Shown in pieces: positions 46,966 to 57,365 of a stretch of 64,000 nucleotides of DNA; position 1 is the first letter of the stretch; every line of letters begins with the position of its first letter. The DNA comes from an uncultured Acutalibacter sp. (GTDB lineage Bacteria > Bacillota > Clostridia > Oscillospirales > Acutalibacteraceae). The translations under genes and the position numbers were made by a program. A model generated the notes under the pieces. The model saw only the letters and a list, made by a program, of their open reading frames with translations, did no database searches and had not been told where the DNA came from. Location of the stretch: positions 1,465-65,464 of the forward strand of contig CAZMFF010000003.1 in NCBI GenBank assembly GCA_964565505.1, given 5' to 3'.

Positions 46966-47005
46966 TTTCTGCTCCTTTCTGAAACTGTTTTACAAGTACG
47001 GCGCA

Positions 47006-47584
47006 TCACGGGAAAAAACGATCCTTGAAAAGATAAGCTCCTCCGCCCAGCAGTCCGCTTGCCGCCATGACAAGGATCGGGCTGAGCTTCAGCCGCCTGA
47101 GAACAAAAAAGCCCAGGAAGATCAAAAAAAGAGAGATCAGGTCGATCTGGAAAAAGGAAGCTTTCCCCTTTTCTCCCCACAGGGCAAGCGTCAGCATCCG
47201 AACGCCCGCACAGGCGATCAGGCCCACCACCGCGGGGCGAAGCCCCTGCAGGACTCCGGAAAACAGAGGGTTTTCCCGGTATCTCTCATAGACTTTTGCC
47301 AGAGCCAGCACGATCAGAAAGGAAGGGAGCACACATCCCAGGGTCGCTGTCAGCGCTCCGGGGATCCCCGCGATCCGGATGCCCACAAAGGTGGCCGCGT
47401 TGACGGCGATGGGGCCGGGAGTCATTTCAGCAATGGTGACCAGATCCGCAAATTCCGTCAGGGAAAGCCAGCCATGCAGGTCTACCACCTGAGCCTGGAT
47501 CAGCGGCATGGCGGCCATTCCCCCTCCGAAGCTCAAAAGCCCGATCTGAAGGAAGCTGAGGAATAAAAGAAAAACTACTTTCAT
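47006..47584 (-). CDS. short-chain CHR (chromate ion transporter family) half-protein
   Basis: MKVVFLLFLSFLQIGLLSFGGGMAAMPLIQ is the CHR signature FGGG..A.P. The start overlaps the stop of its partner. Confidence 0.8.
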   Translation of the reverse strand: MKVVFLLFLSFLQIGLLSFGGGMAAMPLIQAQVVDLHGWLSLTEFADLVTIAEMTPGPIAVNAATFVGIRIAGIPGALTATLGCVLPSFLIVLALAKVYERYRENPLFSGVLQGLRPAVVGLIACAGVRMLTLALWGEKGKASFFQIDLISLFLIFLGFFVLRRLKLSPILVMAASGLLGGGAYLFKDRFFP

Positions 47585-48153
47585 CTCTCTCCCTCCTGTG
47601 TCCGCCGCCGCAAAAGCGTCCAAAGGGCTCCCGCCGCTCCGCTTGCCAAAATGACCAGCGCTGCGTTGATCTCAAAAAGCCAGACAGCTAAAAAGGCTAG
47701 CGTCATCAGCACACAGGAGAAAAGCTTTCCCTCCCGCTGCACCGTTTTCCCCATAGAGAATACCACATCGGCGATCACGGCCACCACGCCGGAGCGCATC
47801 CCGCGCAGCACGGCCGCCACCAGACGGCTGCTCTGAAAGGCCGTGTAGAACAGGGATAACAGGGAAAGCACCAGCATAGGCGGCAGCACTGTACCCAGCA
47901 CCGAAAGCAAAGCGCCGGGAAGCTTCCCAACACGGTATCCCACCAAAATGGAAGCGTTCACCGCCACCGCCCCGGGAGAGGACTGAGCGATGGCCGTAAA
48001 ATTCAGCATTTCTTCCTCTGTGAGCCAGTTTAGCTCCTCCACAAACTTTTTCCGCATCAGGGAGACGATCACATACCCGCCCCCAAAGGTAAAGGCGCTG
48101 AGGACAAAGGTGGTGCGAAACAGCGTCCAGTACAGTTTCAGCGAGCTCTTCAC
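47581..48153 (-). CDS. short-chain CHR family half-protein (partner subunit)
   Basis: FVLSAFTFGGGYVIVSLMRKKF. GTG 48153 lies 7 nt after GGGGGAG; the track's upstream ATG has no SD. Confidence 0.75.
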   Translation of the reverse strand: MKSSLKLYWTLFRTTFVLSAFTFGGGYVIVSLMRKKFVEELNWLTEEEMLNFTAIAQSSPGAVAVNASILVGYRVGKLPGALLSVLGTVLPPMLVLSLLSLFYTAFQSSRLVAAVLRGMRSGVVAVIADVVFSMGKTVQREGKLFSCVLMTLAFLAVWLFEINAALVILASGAAGALWTLLRRRTQEGER

Positions 48154-48288
48154 CCGAATTCTCCCCCTTGCCGCGATCCGACCGCAGAGTAATTGACAAG
48201 ATAAGGATACCTCTTGCAGGCACATATGTAAAATAGTATAATTTAAATTAGTTTATAAGTAATTTGATATGACTTAAGGGAGGAAGCT

Positions 48289-49179
48289 ATGACACTGCGC
48301 CATATGAAGATCTTTGTAGCGGTATGCCATACCGGAAGCATCACCAAGGCGGGAAAAGAGCTGTTTTTATCCCAGCCCTCCGTAAGCCTGGCCATTTCCG
48401 AATTAGAGCAGAATTACGGGGTAAAGCTGTTCGACAGGATCTCTCAAAGGCTGTATATCACGGAGGCAGGCAAAGAGCTTCTGCAATACGCGGAGCATAT
48501 CGTGGGGCTTTTCGAGGAGATGGAGCAGGGCATCAAAAACTGGGACTCCTTAGGAAAGCTGCGCCTTGGGGGCAGCATCACTGTGGGGTGCCGCTACCTG
48601 CCTGAGGCGGTGAAGCTGCTGAGTAAAAAGTACCCCTCTCTGCAGATCGAGGTGACCGTGGACAATTCAGACGCCATCGAGCGGGGCGTTACGGAAAACC
48701 GCCTGGATGTGGCGGTCATTGAGGGGACGGTGCATAACCCTTATCTCGTCTCAAAGCCCCTTTTAGACGACCGGCTGGTTTTTCTGTGCCCGAAAGATCA
48801 CAGCTTTGCCGAACGGGAAGATGTGGACCCCGTCCTTTTGCAAAGGGAAAATTTCCTCCTGCGGGAAAAGGGCAGCGCCGGGCGGGAGCGGGTGGAGGAG
48901 CTGGCCGCCGCCCAGGGGCTTCAGCTTCGCTCCTGTTGGGAAAGCATCAGCACCCACGCCCTGCTGCAGGCGGTGAAGGCGGGATTGGGGATCTCCGTGC
49001 TTCCCTTCCTGCTCGCCAAGGATTCGCTGGACCGGGGAGAGATCTCCCTGTTTTCCGTGAAGGGCGTCTCTCTTTGGAGAAAGCTCAGCGCCATCTATCA
49101 CAAAAACAAATACCTCACCCAAAGCGCAATGGATTTCCTCGCCCTTTGGAAGCGGCTGGCGCCGGAGGGCGGTTTTTAG
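48289..49179 (+). CDS. LysR-family transcriptional regulator
   Basis: MTLRHMKIFVAVCHTGSITKAGKELFLSQPSVSLAISELE is the HTH, followed by a LysR substrate domain. It is divergent from the CHR pair. Its stop codon is the first UAG of the heptad array. Confidence 0.9.
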   Translation: MTLRHMKIFVAVCHTGSITKAGKELFLSQPSVSLAISELEQNYGVKLFDRISQRLYITEAGKELLQYAEHIVGLFEEMEQGIKNWDSLGKLRLGGSITVGCRYLPEAVKLLSKKYPSLQIEVTVDNSDAIERGVTENRLDVAVIEGTVHNPYLVSKPLLDDRLVFLCPKDHSFAEREDVDPVLLQRENFLLREKGSAGRERVEELAAAQGLQLRSCWESISTHALLQAVKAGLGISVLPFLLAKDSLDRGEISLFSVKGVSLWRKLSAIYHKNKYLTQSAMDFLALWKRLAPEGGF

Positions 49180-49214
49180 TTTTTAGTCGTTAGTTTTTAG
49201 TAGTTAGTTGTTAG
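49173..49214 (+). repeat. heptad array L: 6 x (NNNNTAG) on the + strand
   Basis: TAG at 49177, 49184, 49191, 49198, 49205 and 49212 (strict 7-nt period), plus an extra TAG at 49201. The reverse complement reads CTAANNN. Confidence 0.9.
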
Positions 49215-49222
49215 AGAAAAGC

Positions 49223-49288
49223 AAGGGAAGGGCACGCCCTTTCCCTTGACCTTGTCTAATAACTAATATCTAACATCTAACAACTATC
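49223..49288 (+). repeat. repeat module B1+A1: GC hairpin (49223-49247) followed by a 5 x CTAAYAW heptad array (49254-49288)
   Basis: AAGGGAAGGG-cacg-CCCUUUCCCUU hairpin. CTA at 49256, 49263, 49270, 49277 and 49284. Confidence 0.9.
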
Positions 49289-49505
49289 AAGAGGGAGCCA
49301 AGGAATGCCCTCTCAGTCTCGCTGCGCTCGACAGCTCCCCCAAGGGGGGAGCCAAGGAGTGACTGCAAATTTCTGTTCGGTTTGCTTGAGGAAAATTAAG
49401 CTGCGAGCCGCAAAAACTCCTTGCCTCTCCCTTTGGGGTGAGCCAAGTGAGGGGCTGCAAAGCCGCAAACCGCAGAAACCCCCTGCCTCTCGTCAGAGGG
49501 GCCAA
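49289..49505. repeat. hairpin-rich core with four GCCAAG-tailed mini-hairpins
   Basis: Hairpins are AGAGGG..CCCUCU (49290-49313), GCUCCCCC-aag-GGGGGAGC (49334-49352), CUCUCCC..GGGUGAG (49425-49442) and CCUCU-cguc-AGAGG (49486-49499). Each 3' arm runs into (G)CCAAG. Confidence 0.75.
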
Positions 49506-49619
49506 GTCTAACAACTAATATCTAACATCTAACAACTACCACGGGGAGAGCCAGGGGAAAGGGCACGCCCTTTCCCTTGACCTTGTCTAACAACTAATAT
49601 CTAATATCTAACAACTACC
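49506..49619 (+). repeat. repeat module A2 + B2 + A3: heptad array (49506-49540), GC hairpin (49553-49578), heptad array (49585-49619)
   Basis: CTA at 49508, 15, 22, 29, 36 and at 49587, 94, 601, 608, 615. 49561-49619 matches 49230-49288 with 3 mismatches in 59 nt. The anSME stop codon is the array UAG at 49603-49601. Confidence 0.9.
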
Positions 49620-50707
49620 TCTGCCACCCGCTCTAAGGGCTCCCGGCACTGGGTCAAAAATTCCCGGTAGCCGCAGAAGCCCGTGCGATTATCAAACAGG
49701 CTTTCATACATTCTTGCACAGCCTCCGTGACAGAAATTCTCATAGGGGCAACCCTCGCAGGCGCTTCTGTCCCCCTTTTCCCGGGAGATGAATTCCCGGG
49801 CCTTTTGGGATCCCTTCAACTCCTTCACAGAGTTCTCCAGAAAGCTTCCCAGCTTCCACCGGTCCAGCACAAAAAAGTCGCAGGGATAAACGCTGCCGTC
49901 CGCTTCCACAACAAATTGGTTCTGACAGTTTCCCGTCAGACCGCAGGCAGTCACCCGCCGGTAAGCAAGGAGGCCCAGCACATCGTCAAAAAACTTGACG
50001 CTCACATAATTTCCCTTGAGAAAGGCCTCGCTCCAAAGGCGGAACAGCCGGGTATAAAAAGAGGCGAAACGCTTGGGGCTTAAGGCCCAGGGCTCAGGCG
50101 CTTCCTCCCCCAGCTCCTTGAGGCAGGGAATGAACTGCACGAAGGAGATCTTCTCCGAAAGGAGGAATTTCCACACCTGCTCCGGATGGCGCGCGGTGCT
50201 TTCCGTCAGCACCCACAAAATATTATAGGGGACCTGTGCCTTTTCCAAAAGGGCTTTGGCGTTTATCACCCTTTTCCAGGTTCCCTTACCCTCGGCATCC
50301 ACCCGGTTCTCATCGTGGAACTGCGCGGCTCCGTCCAGAGAAAGCCCTACGAGGAAATGATTTTCCCGAAGAAAGGCGCACCATTTCTCATCCAGCAGGA
50401 TCCCGTTGGTCTGAAGGCCGTAATGGACCTGCACCTTCTTTTCCTGCTTTTTGACCTGCGCCGCGAAGTCTTCAAAATAGGAAAGCCCCGCCACGGTGGG
50501 CTCGCCGCCCTGAAACAGGAAGGAGACCTCGTCTCCGTCTTTCAGCTCTTCGTAAACCCGCTGCACGAGCCGCTCGGTCACATCCTTCTTCATTACTCCG
50601 TAGGAGGGGATCTCCCGGCGGCGGCTGACATCGGCGTAAAAGCAGTATCGACAGCGCAGATTGCAAAGAGAGGACGCAGGTTTGATCAAAAATGAATAGC
50701 GGGCCAT
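49601..50707 (-). CDS. anaerobic sulfatase-maturating enzyme (radical SAM/SPASM)
   Basis: MARYSFLIKPASSLCNLRCRYCFY carries the CxxxCxxC motif. FLFQGGEPT, VVEADGSVYPCDF and C-terminal SPASM cysteines are collinear with clostridial anSME as I recall it. Start at 50707; the 111-codon upstream extension in the track is non-coding-looking. Confidence 0.9.
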   Translation of the reverse strand: MARYSFLIKPASSLCNLRCRYCFYADVSRRREIPSYGVMKKDVTERLVQRVYEELKDGDEVSFLFQGGEPTVAGLSYFEDFAAQVKKQEKKVQVHYGLQTNGILLDEKWCAFLRENHFLVGLSLDGAAQFHDENRVDAEGKGTWKRVINAKALLEKAQVPYNILWVLTESTARHPEQVWKFLLSEKISFVQFIPCLKELGEEAPEPWALSPKRFASFYTRLFRLWSEAFLKGNYVSVKFFDDVLGLLAYRRVTACGLTGNCQNQFVVEADGSVYPCDFFVLDRWKLGSFLENSVKELKGSQKAREFISREKGDRSACEGCPYENFCHGGCARMYESLFDNRTGFCGYREFLTQCREPLERVAEVVVRY

Positions 50708-50864
50708 TTTCCTCCCCTTCCCTTTCTCCCGGCACATTCGCCGGCTCTTTTCCTCTATTCTATTCCATTTTTGCCTGAAACACAAGGGAACCTTTTCCTT
50801 GTGCTTTTTCCCTTTTTCTGATAAAATTTTGAAAAGAGAGTTTCCATATGTGGGAGGAAAGCCT

Positions 50865-51923
50865 ATGCCGGTCAAAATCATCAAAGAGTCCCTTGCCGGG
50901 AGACGGATCCTGTTAGTCAGCGATATCCACGGGAACCTTCCCCTGTTTCGGGAGCTGCTTGAAAAGATGGAATATGAGGCGGGGCAGGACGCGCTGGTGA
51001 TCTTGGGCGATCTGATCGAAAAGGGCAGAGAAAACCTCAAAACTCTGCGCTTTGTGATGGAGCTTCAAAAAAAGCCCTTTGTCTATGTGCTTCGGGGCAA
51101 CTGCGACCAGCCCGGAGAGGATGAGGACCGCCTGCTGCAATACCTCGCCTGGTTTCAAGAGCGCACTCTGTTCGGGGAGATGGCAAAAGAGCTGGGGATC
51201 TCCCTGCCCCAGAAAAAAGAGGAGCTTGCCGCTTTTCAGGCAAAGCTCTGGGACGCCTTTCCAAAGGAGCTTTCTTTTCTTCAAGCCCTTCCCCATATTC
51301 TGGAAACGCCTGATTATCTCTTCGCACACGCGGGCCTTTCGGGAGAAACACTTTCGGAGGAATCACCCGATTTTGTACTGTCCACTCCCCTTTTCGGCAA
51401 GCTGCCGGGAAAAGCCTTCCCAAAGCTTCTGGTGGTGGGCCATTATCCCACGGCCAACTACCGGGAAAACTGCCTGGATAACTCCCCCTACTATAACGAG
51501 CAGCGCAATGTGCTGTCCATCGACGGGGGCAATGTGGTAAAAACAGCCGGAGAATTAAACGGCGTGATCCTGGAAAACGGCCGGGAAGGGTTTTCGTGGA
51601 CCTATACCGACCCGTATCAAAAGATCGCAGCTCCCTGCGCGGGGGAGGCTGCTCCCGGCATTGCCGTCATGTGGCCGAACCACCAGGTAGAGCTTATCTC
51701 CCGAGGGGAGGAGTTCTCCCAGTGCCGCGTTGCCGCCACAGGAACTTCTATAGAGGTTCCAAACGACCTGCTTTTTAGGCGGGAGGAGAAATGGTTCTGC
51801 CGAGATATGACAAACTGCCGTCTCGCTGTCGAAAAGGGAGAAACGGTAAGCCTTATCAAGGAGTACAGCGACCGGCTGATGATCCTGAAGGGCGGAAAGG
51901 TGGGCTTTCTCTTTAAGGCTTGA
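50865..51923 (+). CDS. metallophosphoesterase (calcineurin-like) with an extra C-terminal domain
   Basis: ILLVSDIHGN, LGDLIEKG, RGNCD and GHYP motifs. ATG 50865 follows GGGAGGAAA. Confidence 0.8.
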   Translation: MPVKIIKESLAGRRILLVSDIHGNLPLFRELLEKMEYEAGQDALVILGDLIEKGRENLKTLRFVMELQKKPFVYVLRGNCDQPGEDEDRLLQYLAWFQERTLFGEMAKELGISLPQKKEELAAFQAKLWDAFPKELSFLQALPHILETPDYLFAHAGLSGETLSEESPDFVLSTPLFGKLPGKAFPKLLVVGHYPTANYRENCLDNSPYYNEQRNVLSIDGGNVVKTAGELNGVILENGREGFSWTYTDPYQKIAAPCAGEAAPGIAVMWPNHQVELISRGEEFSQCRVAATGTSIEVPNDLLFRREEKWFCRDMTNCRLAVEKGETVSLIKEYSDRLMILKGGKVGFLFKA

Positions 51924-56201: not shown

Positions 56202-56258
56202 AAAAGCGCCCGCCCTGCAATGGGTAACCCATTGCAGGGCGGGCGCTTTTCCTCTTTT
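56202..56258 (+). terminator. very strong intrinsic terminator after hydF
   Basis: AAAAGCGCCCGCCCUGCAAUGGGU / ACCCAUUGCAGGGCGGGCGCUUUU, an arm of about 23 bp followed by a U-rich tail. Confidence 0.87.
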
Positions 56259-56444
56259 GGCAGTCTTGTTCTCAGAAGGAACTAAGGCCAAAAAAGATTG
56301 GACGGCATTCAGTTTTCATCAGATTTTGTTTTGAAATTGGAAAAGCCTCAATTTGCTGACGCAAACCATAAAATTCCGAAAGGGAGAAGCAAGAACTCTC
56401 TCCCTCAGTCACGGCTTTCTGCTTCAGAGGAAGCCAAGCCTTTA

Positions 56445-56525
56445 TCTAACGACTAACATCTCAAATCTAACAACTACCAAAGGGAGGCAAGTCTAATAAC
56501 TAATATCTAACATCTAATAACTACC
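56445..56525 (+). repeat. second locus of the heptad-array family: degenerate array A5 (56445-56478) and array A4 (56491-56525)
   Basis: CTA at 56446, 56453, (CTC at 56460), 56467 and 56474, then at 56493, 56500, 56507, 56514 and 56521. A4 is near-identical to A1/A2/A3. Both arrays are preceded by ...G(C)CAAG, as at the first locus. Confidence 0.88.
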
Positions 56526-56591
56526 AAGGCGGGAGCCGTTTCACGGCTCAGGGGTTCTTCTTAACAACAAGGGCTTCTTCCACTTCTATTC

Positions 56592-56651
56592 GAAGAATCT
56601 TGTCTTTTGCGAAAGCAAAAGGAAACTGCTTCGCAGTTTAAAAGATTCTTC
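56592..56651. other. nested palindrome able to fold as a three-stem junction (candidate structured RNA)
   Basis: The outer stem GAAGAAUCUU (56592-56601) / AAGAUUCUUC (56642-56651) encloses two hairpins: CUUUUGC-gaaa-GCAAAAG (56604-56621) and AAACUGC-uuc-GCAGUUU (56623-56639). Confidence 0.5.
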
Positions 56652-56654
56652 CTA

Positions 56655-56685
56655 AGGACAAAGGCTGCGCCTTTGTCCTTTTTAC
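56655..56685 (+). terminator. intrinsic terminator oriented for a + strand transcript (also directly abuts the stop of the minus-strand SDR-like gene)
   Basis: AGGACAAAGG-cugcg-CCUUUGUCCU followed by UUUU on the + strand. On the minus strand there is an A-tract before the hairpin but no U-tract after it. Confidence 0.6.
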
Positions 56686-57365
56686 CAACTCAGCTCCCGG
56701 AACAGGCCGTCCCTTCTCACCAGGCGGTTTTCATCCGAGTGGATATAGTCGTCCTCCGGAAGATAGGAGAAGTCCTGCAAAATATAATCCGCGGCGCTCA
56801 TTCCGCCTTTGGGGCCGTCGGTCACAAAGTTCCGGAAGGTAAAGCCCTCGGGGCGCAGCTCATTGAAGGAAACCTTCAGCATATTATGTATTGCCGCCTG
56901 GGCCATATGCCAGGCAAAGTCATCTTTGTCCTCGCAAAAGCCAATGCCTGCATTTGTTTTGGAGAGCAAAGCGATCCGCTTGCCCTCTCCCTTTTTCAAA
57001 AGGGGCAGGAAAGCGGTGAGGATCCTCTCTATTCCCGCTGCTCCCCGATCCAAAGCCTCTGCCAGCTCCTCATAATCGCGGCCGCTGCCCACCGGCTTAT
57101 CCTCTTTCAGATGATAGGCGCTTTCCAGCACCAGAAGGTCCAGCGCGCCCTCCTTCTCCTCTACCGCCTTCGCGGCGCTCTGGGCGCCGGCGCGATCCGC
57201 AAGGTCAATGCTCAAAAGGCTGATTCCCTCTTTTTCTCCTGCTTCGTGAGATGCGCCGTCCGTATAAGCTCCGTACACCTGATAGCCCGACTTATTTAGC
57301 TGCTGTGCAGTCTCCCAGGCGTCCTGCTCCTGAATGGACGCAATAAACGCAACCTTTTTACTCAT
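56682..57365 (-). CDS. SDR-fold paralog lacking the cofactor-binding and catalytic motifs (probable pseudoenzyme)
   Basis: 227 aa and alignable by eye to the adjacent SDR (AAKAV.EK, AFLPLL..GE.R, FNELRP.G..FR). However, TGxxxGxG becomes ASIQEQDA, and YxxxK becomes W-HMA-Q. Confidence 0.7.
   Translation of the reverse strand: MSKKVAFIASIQEQDAWETAQQLNKSGYQVYGAYTDGASHEAGEKEGISLLSIDLADRAGAQSAAKAVEEKEGALDLLVLESAYHLKEDKPVGSGRDYEELAEALDRGAAGIERILTAFLPLLKKGEGKRIALLSKTNAGIGFCEDKDDFAWHMAQAAIHNMLKVSFNELRPEGFTFRNFVTDGPKGGMSAADYILQDFSYLPEDDYIHSDENRLVRRDGLFRELSW

Follow-up and report, generated by a model that had tools for sequence, protein, structure and literature searches.

Inverted seven-nucleotide stop-codon arrays of a dispersed intergenic repeat family between convergent LysR-family and radical SAM genes of an uncultured Acutalibacter

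Over-representation of heptamers in prokaryotic intergenic DNA has been known since the 1990s-2000s, without an established function; the STRR heptamers of cyanobacteria were reportedly described by Mazel et al. in 1990. TAACTGA heptamers form intergenic direct repeats in Beggiatoaceae, Cyanobacteria and Bacteroidetes (MacGregor 2015, PMC4679880), and other over-represented heptameric SSRs include GGGAATC of Xanthomonas and GGGGAYT of Nostoc (PMC4692102). Dispersed palindromes tagged with GTAG/CGTC, the REP/BIME elements, are found in enterobacteria and pseudomonads (PMC3733652). Here we analysed a 64,000-nt stretch of a contig from an uncultured Acutalibacter sp. (the window), in which the spacer between converging LysR-family and radical SAM/SPASM (anSME-like) genes is filled by copies of one dispersed mosaic repeat family, a fresh variant of this already described kind of intergenic heptamer repeat. 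The first-pass annotation of the locus did not recognise it as a described repeat, which holds for the family and its architecture, found neither in Rfam nor in the literature searched, but not for the class of intergenic heptamers as such (PMC4679880, PMC4692102).

The basic module of the family is about 110 nt long and consists of an (NNNTTAG)x5-6 array, a GC stem-loop and a (CTAANNN)x5 array. Compared with it, the window locus (Table 1) has two more array copies, a second copy of the hairpin and the X block, 220 nt of short repeats of other kinds. The four arrays with an exact 7-nt period that had been pointed out in this spacer were found in place, with plus-strand TAG of the beta array at 49177/84/91/98/205/212 and plus-strand CTA runs at 49256-84, 49508-36 and 49587-615. 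One conserved 31-nt sequence, CTAAYAACTAATATCTAAYATCTAAYAACTA, recurs in all three CTA arrays. Such periodicity is far beyond chance: the pattern (CTAANNN)x3CTAA, allowing up to 2 mismatches, has 14 matches in the window and none in 100 dinucleotide shuffles. Across the family, CTAA (heptad positions 1-4) is invariant in 68 of 68 heptads and positions 5-7 vary, the units having the form CTAA + YRW. The X block holds four GAGCCAAG-type units and a 23-nt inverted repeat (49338-60 / 49416-38); its unrelated GC-rich motif at 49304-49356 is widespread among human-gut contigs and was the sole match in a search of a phage collection. No promoter-like sites were detected in either array-bearing spacer of the window.

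Table 1. Coordinates of genes, arrays and hairpins in the two array-bearing convergent spacers of the window
Feature	Position	Strand	Description
LysR-family regulator gene	48289..49179	+	From the ORF list; Pfam HTH_1 + LysR_substrate
Beta array	49173..49214	-	Six heptads: NNNTTAG on +, CTAANNN on -
GC-rich stem-loop H1	~49222..49248	.	About 11 bp
Alpha array, copy 1	49256..49286	+	CTAATAA CTAATAT CTAACAT CTAACAA CTA
X block	49287..49507	.	Mosaic of other short GC-rich repeats, ~220 nt; no counterpart in the MAG orthologue
Alpha array, copy 2	49508..49538	+	
GC-rich stem-loop H2	~49552..49579	.	13-nt arms, 92% complementary
Alpha array, copy 3	49587..49617	+	Covers last 5 codons and stop of the radical SAM gene
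Radical SAM/SPASM (anSME-like) gene	49601..50737	-	378 aa
Degenerate alpha-type array	56446..56477	+	Second convergent spacer (HydF / short-chain dehydrogenase)
Intact alpha array	56493..56523	+	Second convergent spacer

As had been proposed from the letters alone, every intact array carries at least one stop codon in each of the six frames, which is TAG where the strand reads TTAG and TAA where it reads CTAA; the beta array, for example, has TAG in all three plus-strand frames and TAA in all three minus-strand frames. Since 7 = 1 mod 3, a stop occurs in every frame within 21 nt from either side. Both flanking genes indeed end on array triplets. The LysR ORF closes with TAG at 49177-49179, the first such triplet of the TTAG array, and the radical SAM stop (49601-49603, minus strand) is the third TAG of alpha copy 3, which also encodes the C-terminal residues VVVRY. 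Each of the two mRNAs carries five to six UAG-N4 units, again as annotated. Though ending on array TAGs, both genes are otherwise full length (the LysR protein has 296 aa vs 299 aa in a homologue). An exact look-up of the window's radical SAM protein returned no record.

Both GC hairpins reported for the spacer are present, and H1 together with its flanking arrays forms an extended hairpin. The segment 49165-49295 folds with −46.7 kcal/mol as plus-strand RNA and −41.9 as minus-strand RNA (z −5.3 and −5.7), and inverted modules of the family reach −42 to −67 kcal/mol in RNA of either strand (z −5 to −11). The inverted arms found in the window, 49 nt long, are 76-78% complementary. In the window copy, pairing past the two innermost heptads is limited to TTAG/CTAA tetramers, and the outer arrays are therefore predicted to be largely single-stranded. 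H2 sits between alpha arrays that point the same way, so that only its GC stem pairs; z-scores for 49500-49625 are −1.65 and −0.88. The hairpin recurs twice in the window, at the family loci L121 and L124/L128 and three times at L125, mosaicked with other motifs. At gathering thresholds, Rfam gave no match over the whole window, and in E-value mode 49100-49700 returned microRNA noise alone (E ≥ 0.075). Unlike canonical terminators elsewhere in the genome (e.g. 56203-56249), the module GC hairpins have no U-tract, which makes intrinsic termination at them only putative. Moreover, the arms are U-rich on the 5′ side and A-rich on the 3′ side, the opposite of a bidirectional terminator. A canonical intrinsic (bidirectional) terminator was rejected: the stem is present, the tails read CCTTGACCTTGTCT and CCCTTGCTTTTCTC, and there was one borderline match, on the minus strand only.

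Comparison with relatives indicates that the arrays are constrained in sequence. In an uncultured Neglectibacter MAG, the same LysR/radical SAM junction contains one module of ~112 nt overlapping both stop codons. Its counterparts of the beta array and of alpha copy 3 are identical to those of the window at 46/47 and 31/31 nt, respectively; in total the arrays agree at 77/78 positions across the two species, N3 included, against 88-90% for the flanking CDSs and 74% for LysR third codon positions. In a third lineage (L127), the same gene end has five TTAG and five CTAA units in which N3 and the centre differ; core, period and unit number are kept despite the changed N3. Unit number is constant at 5-6, with no length polymorphism between species. 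Conservation does not extend far: the element is found in the sister species and is missing in more distant relatives. A scan of JGI metagenomes for the hairpin-array junction gave 0 matches, which suggests that the family is rare outside its clade, and a plasmid collection contained no match to it.

The family is also gained and lost. One relative has an array-less allele (L126), in which homology and synteny end exactly at the array edge; five Logan contigs (short-read assemblies) terminate inside an array, and gene order near the radical SAM gene varies among relatives. Presence/absence polymorphism at orthologous sites is seen in the L126 allele and again at the second window locus, where a ~280-nt block with both 56.4-kb arrays is missing from the orthologous 132-nt spacer of the MAG; the left side of the filled and empty spacers is too diverged for boundary placement. 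The degenerate array of this locus has lost the stops from two frames. Both 56.4-kb arrays are over 250 nt away from the end of either gene, with a canonical terminator on each side, and are thus not needed as stops. Further family copies occur at the MAG loci L121 and L125, the latter including three tandem hairpin-plus-array units, which lack unique spacers and do not constitute a CRISPR. The L121 array ends 24 nt before an ATG, and the array at L125 347-377 is likewise directly upstream of an SD/ATG, both being in forward orientation. Gain, loss and rearrangement at the edges suggest a dispersed or mobile repeat; a target-site duplication, which had been named as a sign of a plain MITE, is not seen at the LysR/anSME junction. 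No transposase was found, and no recombinase gene adjoins any copy examined.

The copies are intergenic and arranged non-randomly rather than scattered over coding sequences or in random orientation. Control heptads with the cores CATA, TACA and CAAT each gave at least 120 matches, like CTAA, so counts do not separate CTAA from them; differences are confined to array heterogeneity, inverted pairing and orientation. Among the matches listed, inverted pairs run TTAG then CTAA in 20 clusters and in the reverse order in 2. This order is not shared by control heptads and is explained neither by the stops nor by the hairpin. Related arrays elsewhere adjoin start codons on the CUAA strand in 42 cases vs 17, again among the matches listed.

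Considered against the described systems, the window arrays resemble TAACTGA repeats in being intergenic sets of tandem 7-nt units (2-6 per set in the latter) with stops in all forward frames. The motifs are one base apart, TAACTGA vs TAACTAA (CTAATAA rotated), the L121 and L125 347-377 arrays are placed as in Beggiatoa, and no function is established in either case. However, the window units are heterogeneous, with only the 4-nt core invariant, and have stops on both strands, whereas TAACTGA leaves the reverse strand open. In addition, the arrays are paired in inverted orientation around a GC hairpin within a larger mosaic and occur in a Firmicute, the LysR/radical SAM locus is a convergent 3′-3′ spacer, and no array of either window locus lies in forward orientation only a few nt from a start codon. 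Heptameric SSRs are likewise intergenic with a 7-nt period, typically ~4 units and 4-5 conserved positions per unit, some form inverted pairs, and their position is conserved between related species with variation. Those, however, are G-rich, length-variable and proposed to form G-quadruplexes, whereas the window arrays have a G-free strand opposite a stop-rich one, do not vary in length and appear to be copied and pasted as part of a 31-nt unit.

The mosaic as a whole recalls REP/BIME elements, dispersed GC-rich imperfect palindromes of 20-40 bp that are mosaicked with short motifs where genes end or converge; they are transcribed and not translated, and have been suggested to stabilise mRNAs and to act in termination. 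The signature of the window family is nevertheless the heptad array, the palindrome being optional (L127). REP in the strict sense was rejected: the GTAG/CGTC tag is absent beside the palindrome, which is flanked by AGAGAAGG/TTGACCTT, and the nearest CTAC/GTAG is ~40 nt off, at the outer end of an array. No RAYT gene was seen in the sequence examined (the 64-kb window and a few loci). With MITEs the elements share a size of 110-450 nt, imperfect terminal inverted repeats, foldability, intergenic location and presence/absence between close relatives, but no parent transposon was found and their inverted repeats are internally periodic. Integron attC sites are imperfect palindromes that begin with an RYYYAAC inverse core and finish with a GTTRRRY core; the motifs ATCTAAC and GTTAGAT are present here in reversed order, the GTTAG arm preceding the CTAAC arm, and attC was dismissed.

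The explanation that we tentatively favour, while giving it somewhat less than an even chance, is that of a lineage-specific dispersed intergenic repeat which serves as a gene-boundary module, passive and symmetric with respect to the strands. The CTAA/TTAG core would provide both strands with a stop, TAA or TAG depending on the strand, and the 7-nt phase would rotate it through the frames, ending translation from either side after at most 21 nt. Inverted arms together with the GC stem would form a long stable hairpin in either transcript, most likely marking or protecting its 3′ end. As for its origin, the module may have come to lie at a rearrangement junction that left both genes without a stop codon and 3′ UTR of their own, both now ending on array stops; all-frame stops could render such insertion or recombination harmless. 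The suggestion of the first-pass annotation that the element is a translation/transcription insulator at convergent gene ends comes close to this explanation. Several observations speak against it: three heptads suffice for all-frame stops and the arrays hold 5-6, interspecies N3 identity is not accounted for by stops alone, the hairpins lack a U-tract, and the 56.4-kb arrays are dispensable as stops. A selfish or neutral repeat, MITE/REP-like or born by slippage and spread or homogenised by transposition, recombination or gene conversion, might be considered instead; stops and hairpin would then be incidental, and the repeat would build up where it is tolerated, e.g. in convergent spacers. 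Gain, loss and rearrangement between genomes ~10% diverged, assembly breaks within arrays and modules common to other loci fit such a repeat, and so does the position of both window loci in convergent spacers, where nothing is required. Heptamer SSRs are, moreover, common generally, as the control heptads illustrate, and their over-representation has been reported (PMC4692102). We consider it rather unlikely, since no target-site duplication is seen at the LysR/anSME junction, no transposase was found, unit number is constant, the core is invariant, array identity far exceeds that of third codon positions, the third lineage retains core, period and unit number with new N3, and the orientation rule is not common to control heptads.

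Whole-array conservation including N3, together with the exact period and the constant unit number, would also be expected of a platform for an oligomeric single-strand RNA-binding protein (HutP-like, cold-shock-domain, S1 or another ring protein) that takes one subunit per heptad and governs hairpin formation, termination or translation. Direct modules leave arrays single-stranded beside the hairpin, the start-codon bias of the CUAA strand points the same way, and cold-shock proteins, which bind ~7 nt per domain, have been suggested for TAACTGA repeats (PMC4679880). Against it, every transcript carries arrays in both RNA polarities, and the differing N3 of L127 at the same gene end means that recognition would rest on UUAG/CUAA alone. 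The first-pass annotation had proposed a HutP/TRAP-like ring protein in particular. The HutP site of the B. subtilis hut operon consists of UAG triplets with 4-nt spacers beside a hairpin, and the window matches this spacing with at least three UAG triplets on each flanking mRNA. Unlike that site, the window element lies between converging genes with no downstream operon to antiterminate or otherwise regulate and no U-tract terminator, its invariant core is 4 nt (UUAG/CUAA) rather than UAG alone and is mirrored on the other strand, and it is multi-copy and dispersed, with related copies found in different surroundings, some of them immediately before start codons. HutP is, to our knowledge, a Bacillus-type protein not known in Oscillospiraceae. 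TRAP binds 9-11 (G/U)AG repeats with 2-3-nt spacers, and a TRAP site is ruled out by a spacer of exactly 4 nt and by 5-6 units. Taken together, these points make a protein platform clearly unlikely and argue against its HutP/TRAP form. An element operating at the DNA level, with subterminal recombinase or transposase sites or with inverted arrays extruding as a recombination-promoting cruciform, would account for the position at rearrangement junctions, for synteny ending exactly at the array edge, for the differing gene order around the radical SAM gene and for a fixed arm orientation like that of terminal inverted repeats. It appears improbable: no recombinase gene neighbours any copy examined, no target-site duplication is seen at the LysR/anSME junction, leader/trailer placement relative to ORFs elsewhere suggests RNA-level logic, and repeated binding to one face of duplex DNA would require a spacing longer than 7 bp.

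Beyond this family, TTAG-then-CTAA inverted pairs occur in Firmicutes, in cyanobacteria-like and phage contigs and in diverse metagenomes. That they represent a widespread, undescribed class of portable gene-boundary elements is a doubtful proposition, yet one that can be formulated: the UUAG arm would close upstream frames, the G-free, start-codon-free CUAA arm would offer the following gene a leader or standby site, and the paired arms might form a hairpin that couples or insulates neighbouring cistrons, possibly read by a protein binding one subunit per heptad. The repeat family of the window (Neglectibacter family) would then be one lineage-specific, mobile incarnation.

The window family offers a compact testable case of intergenic heptamers, combining a both-strand stop core, frame rotation, fixed unit number, constrained arm order and gain/loss. 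If the gene-boundary explanation is true, it would account for arrays at gene ends and starts alike and would provide a naturally occurring cassette of translation stops and a hairpin that works in either orientation; if it is false, the locus is an ordinary lineage-specific repeat. Whichever holds, short-read assemblies are interrupted at these repeats, rearrangement junctions coincide with them, and neighbouring genes take their final codons from them.

The spacer between the convergent genes for a LysR-family regulator and an anSME-like radical-SAM/SPASM protein carries a real, non-random and conserved feature. Direct reading of the sequence and Tandem Repeats Finder, which assigned period 7 to all four arrays, bore out the 7-nt-periodic TAG/CTA arrays of the first-pass annotation, and the GC hairpins that it placed between them (H1 and H2) were likewise recovered. 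Matches to (CTAANNN)x3CTAA with <=2 mismatches number 14 in the window versus 0 in 100 dinucleotide-preserving shuffles. Each of the three CTA arrays is a copy of the 31-nt sequence CTAAYAACTAATATCTAAYATCTAAYAACTA (alpha), which in two of them forms, together with the 3′ half of the hairpin, a 62-nt unit (units 95% identical). The TAG array is of a second subtype, beta, with the reverse complement CTAACAA CTAACTA CTAAAAA CTAACGA CTAAAAA CTA; read as TTAG on the + strand it is denoted beta′. The + strand order is beta′ - H1 - alpha1 - X - alpha2 - H2 - alpha3, where X is a 220-nt repeat block. Two further arrays are placed at 56.4 kb, between the canonical terminators of the convergent genes for HydF and a short-chain dehydrogenase. 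Across 68 family heptads the core CTAA (positions 1-4) is invariant, position 5 is C, T or A, position 6 mostly A and position 7 A or T; G content of the CTAA strand is 1%.

Features of the two convergent spacers and predicted folding of array modules (energies and z as + / - strand)
Feature	Position	Strand	Energy (kcal/mol)	z	Remark
LysR-family regulator ORF	48289-49179	+			left flank of spacer
TTAG (beta′) array	TAG at 49177, 84, 91, 98, 205, 212	+			direct reading of 48900-49900
H1, H2 (GC hairpins)	about 49222-49248, about 49552-49579
CTA arrays, 7-nt steps	49256-49284, 49508-49536, 49587-49615	+			direct reading of 48900-49900
X	49287-49507				mosaic of other short GC-rich repeats
Radical-SAM/SPASM anSME-like ORF	49601-50737	-			right flank of spacer
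Alpha-type array, degenerate	56446-56477				second convergent spacer
Alpha-type array	56493-56523				second convergent spacer
Window left module	49165-49295	+ / -	-46.7 / -41.9	-5.3 / -5.7
Direct alpha-H2-alpha unit	49500-49625	+ / -	not significant	-1.65 / -0.88
Whole spacer	49165-49625	+ / -	-185 / -189	about -8 / -7
MAG module (L124)		+ / -	-66.7 / -64.6	-9.4 / -11.0
L127 module		+ / -	-43.7 / -40.5	-6.4 / -8.1

A GC-rich motif within X (gccctctcagtc...gacagctcccccaaggggggagcc, 49304-49356) recurs, several times per record, in 21 unannotated human-faecal records labelled 'Bacteriophage sp.'. Its variants adjoin arrays in L121 and L125 (contigs of an uncultured Neglectibacter MAG) and L127 (another relative), and also occur around window position 56400; the motif looks like a widespread intergenic repeat of gut Clostridia.

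The four bases of CTAA contain both TAA and CTA, the latter read as TAG on the opposite strand, and at 7-nt phase the core blocks all six frames. As the first-pass annotation had proposed, no frame of either strand is free of stops in any intact array, the TTAG strand supplying TAG and the CTAA strand TAA. The flanking genes do take their stop codons from the arrays: the LysR gene, full-length relative to a homologue, ends at the first TAG of its array, and the radical-SAM gene at the third, so that its last residues, VVVRY, are array-encoded.

According to predicted folding, a long hairpin is possible in either transcript; in the direct alpha-H2-alpha unit the GC stem alone is predicted to pair, leaving the arrays single-stranded. 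Module hairpins have no U-tract, which is present at ordinary terminators of this genome (e.g. 56203-56249). Strong canonical terminators, including a 20-bp stem with T-tract, follow the HydF (56203-56249) and dehydrogenase (56655-56690) genes, so the organism does use ordinary terminators with a U-tract, from which the module hairpins differ. The 5′ arm of the module is, furthermore, rich in U and G and the 3′ arm in A and C, opposite to the pattern of a bidirectional terminator.

Scanning one genome per species for the alpha 31-mer retrieved three contigs of the Neglectibacter MAG (Oscillospiraceae) and single copies in two unrelated AT-rich MAGs (34-40% GC) of Ignavibacteriaceae and Bacteroidales (L122, 4659-4689; L123, 5566-5596). 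The latter two probably originated independently from the small unit alphabet (CTAA-Y-A-W), transfer being a possible alternative. The L122 copy is identical to alpha1 of the window and has an ATG 5 nt downstream. At the LysR/radical-SAM junction of the Neglectibacter MAG (L124/L128) there is a single module of about 112 nt, beta′ - GC hairpin - alpha, overlapping both stop codons; the window thus carries this module enlarged by ~330 nt. In L127 (radical-SAM protein 92% identical) five TTAG and five CTAA units remain at the corresponding gene end, with different N3 (heptad positions 5-7) and without the GC hairpin. The search of relatives proposed in the first-pass annotation therefore yields copies in the MAG and L127; no array is present in L126 (93% identical), where an ordinary terminator and another downstream gene are found, nor in more distant relatives (65% and 58% identical; six contigs, 75.7 kb, partly redundant). 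The edge of the array is precisely where homology of L126 to the window breaks off; its upstream gene is orthologous.

The MAG spacer orthologous to the 56.4-kb locus is 132 nt long and has no array. In the same MAG, L125 carries three tandem hairpin-plus-alpha units with a 67-nt period, and arrays in L121 and L125 (347-377) lie directly upstream of SD + ATG. Beyond the radical-SAM gene, five Logan contigs (L129-L133, from five samples) all stop at one point within the array, which is what a multi-copy repeat would cause; such heptad-array repeats break short-read assemblies. Taken against its relatives, the window shows a module that has been gained, lost and is present at rearrangement junctions, and the spacer is one of the sites of a dispersed repeat family specific to the lineage.

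Gene order in the radical-SAM/sulfatase cluster varies among relatives (window 47000-51900 versus L126, L128, L134 and L137): the radical-SAM gene is found in an operon with two sulfatases, downstream of chrA-chrA or, in the window, convergent with LysR. The derived junction is the site of the array module. Near the second locus, direct 6-nt repeats TTCTTC (56555-56560, 56646-56651) flank a 91-nt segment (56561-56651) that the MAG orthologue, with the sequence caggggttcttc|ctaaggac, does not have. Given the direct repeats, the indel is either a small insertion that duplicated its target site or a deletion by slippage.

Comparison of the window with the MAG gives an identity of 88.0% for the LysR coding sequence, 90.0% for that of the radical-SAM gene and 74.3% for LysR third codon positions, whereas the beta array is identical at 46/47 and the alpha array at 31/31 positions; the arrays thus change far more slowly than synonymous sites. 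Identity of N3 in these two closest genomes may reflect homogenisation among copies. Array length is invariant at 5-6 units, and since L127 has altered N3 while retaining core, period and unit number, what is more deeply constrained is the CTAA core, the 7-nt phase and a number of about five units.

Outside this lineage, (CTAANNN)x4CTA had at least 120 matches in viral and at least 120 in metagenome collections; the control cores CATA, TACA and CAAT also had at least 120 matches each. Hence, heptad arrays are generally common, in agreement with the literature (PMC4692102), and counts cannot mark CTAA as special. Among the matches listed, however, heterogeneous arrays made up 107/149 for CTAA versus 58/133 for CATA, 37/123 for TACA and 95/151 for CAAT, and an inverted partner array was present within 150 nt in 22/149 versus 0, 1 and 4 for the controls. 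Also among the matches listed (viral and metagenome loci L001-L120 and L475-L594), TTAG precedes CTAA in 32 pairs (20 sequence clusters) versus 2 pairs (2 clusters) in reverse order (binomial p = 1.2e-4), and all five inverted modules of the Neglectibacter family have the same order. Typically, one ORF ends in or near the TTAG arm, and the CTAA arm is closely followed by the start of the next. Starts of ORFs >=100 aa that lie <=35 nt downstream number 42 on the CTAA strand versus 17 on the TTAG strand, both observations being approximate, as made with no gene caller. The arm order may have to do with start codons: the CUAA arm, being G-free, unable to hold a start codon and unstructured, would suit a position just upstream of a true start, while UUG, AUG and GUG abound in the UUAG arm. 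In L541 (around 1839, - strand) an apparent 5′ end of a tRNA gene (gggctcatagctcaggcggttagagcg) comes directly after a CTAA heptad array.

The reading we prefer, tentatively and with somewhat less than even confidence, is that the module is a portable, strand-symmetric boundary. Array stops would terminate translation entering in any frame, a stable stem-loop would cap the transcript end, and all-frame stops would let the module land or recombine at gene ends without long fusion tails. The weak points of this boundary role are the missing U-tract, more units than three frames need, the distance of the 56-kb arrays from gene ends, and the arm-order rule, for which it does not account. A neutral or selfish repeat appears less likely. 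What occupies the LysR/radical-SAM locus itself is probably either a passive boundary or a repeat.

Less probable still is a platform for an oligomeric single-strand RNA-binding protein. HutP sites have UAG-N4 spacing and TRAP sites a different one. The window arrays share the HutP spacing but do not display context features of HutP sites, and TRAP was rejected by spacing, so the HutP/TRAP-type riboregulator envisaged in the first-pass annotation did not hold up. A DNA-level recombination site, with the module present at rearrangement junctions, seems the most doubtful; attC was rejected by the order of motifs.

Rfam contains no such family, and the literature searched has no description of the window repeat family or of the TTAG-then-CTAA rule. 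The earlier view that this is not a described repeat therefore stands for the family itself, although intergenic heptamer repeats as such were already known. TAACTGA heptamers of Beggiatoaceae, Cyanobacteria and Bacteroidetes, one base apart from the window unit CTAATAA, precede start codons in forward orientation, and no function is known for them (PMC4679880); others include Xanthomonas GGGAATC and Nostoc GGGGAYT (PMC4692102), and heptamers located 5′ of Nostoc recF/recO affected reporters modestly (bioRxiv 10.1101/2022.06.06.494920). REP/BIME elements similarly combine palindromes and short motifs as a mosaic at gene 3′ ends, but their GTAG/CGTC tag is missing in the window family (PMC3733652). 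The family is thus one more form of the known, themselves unexplained, intergenic heptamer repeats and mosaic intergenic repeats; with a core that is a stop on both strands and with the TTAG-then-CTAA rule, the long-standing heptamer repeat question becomes easier to test.
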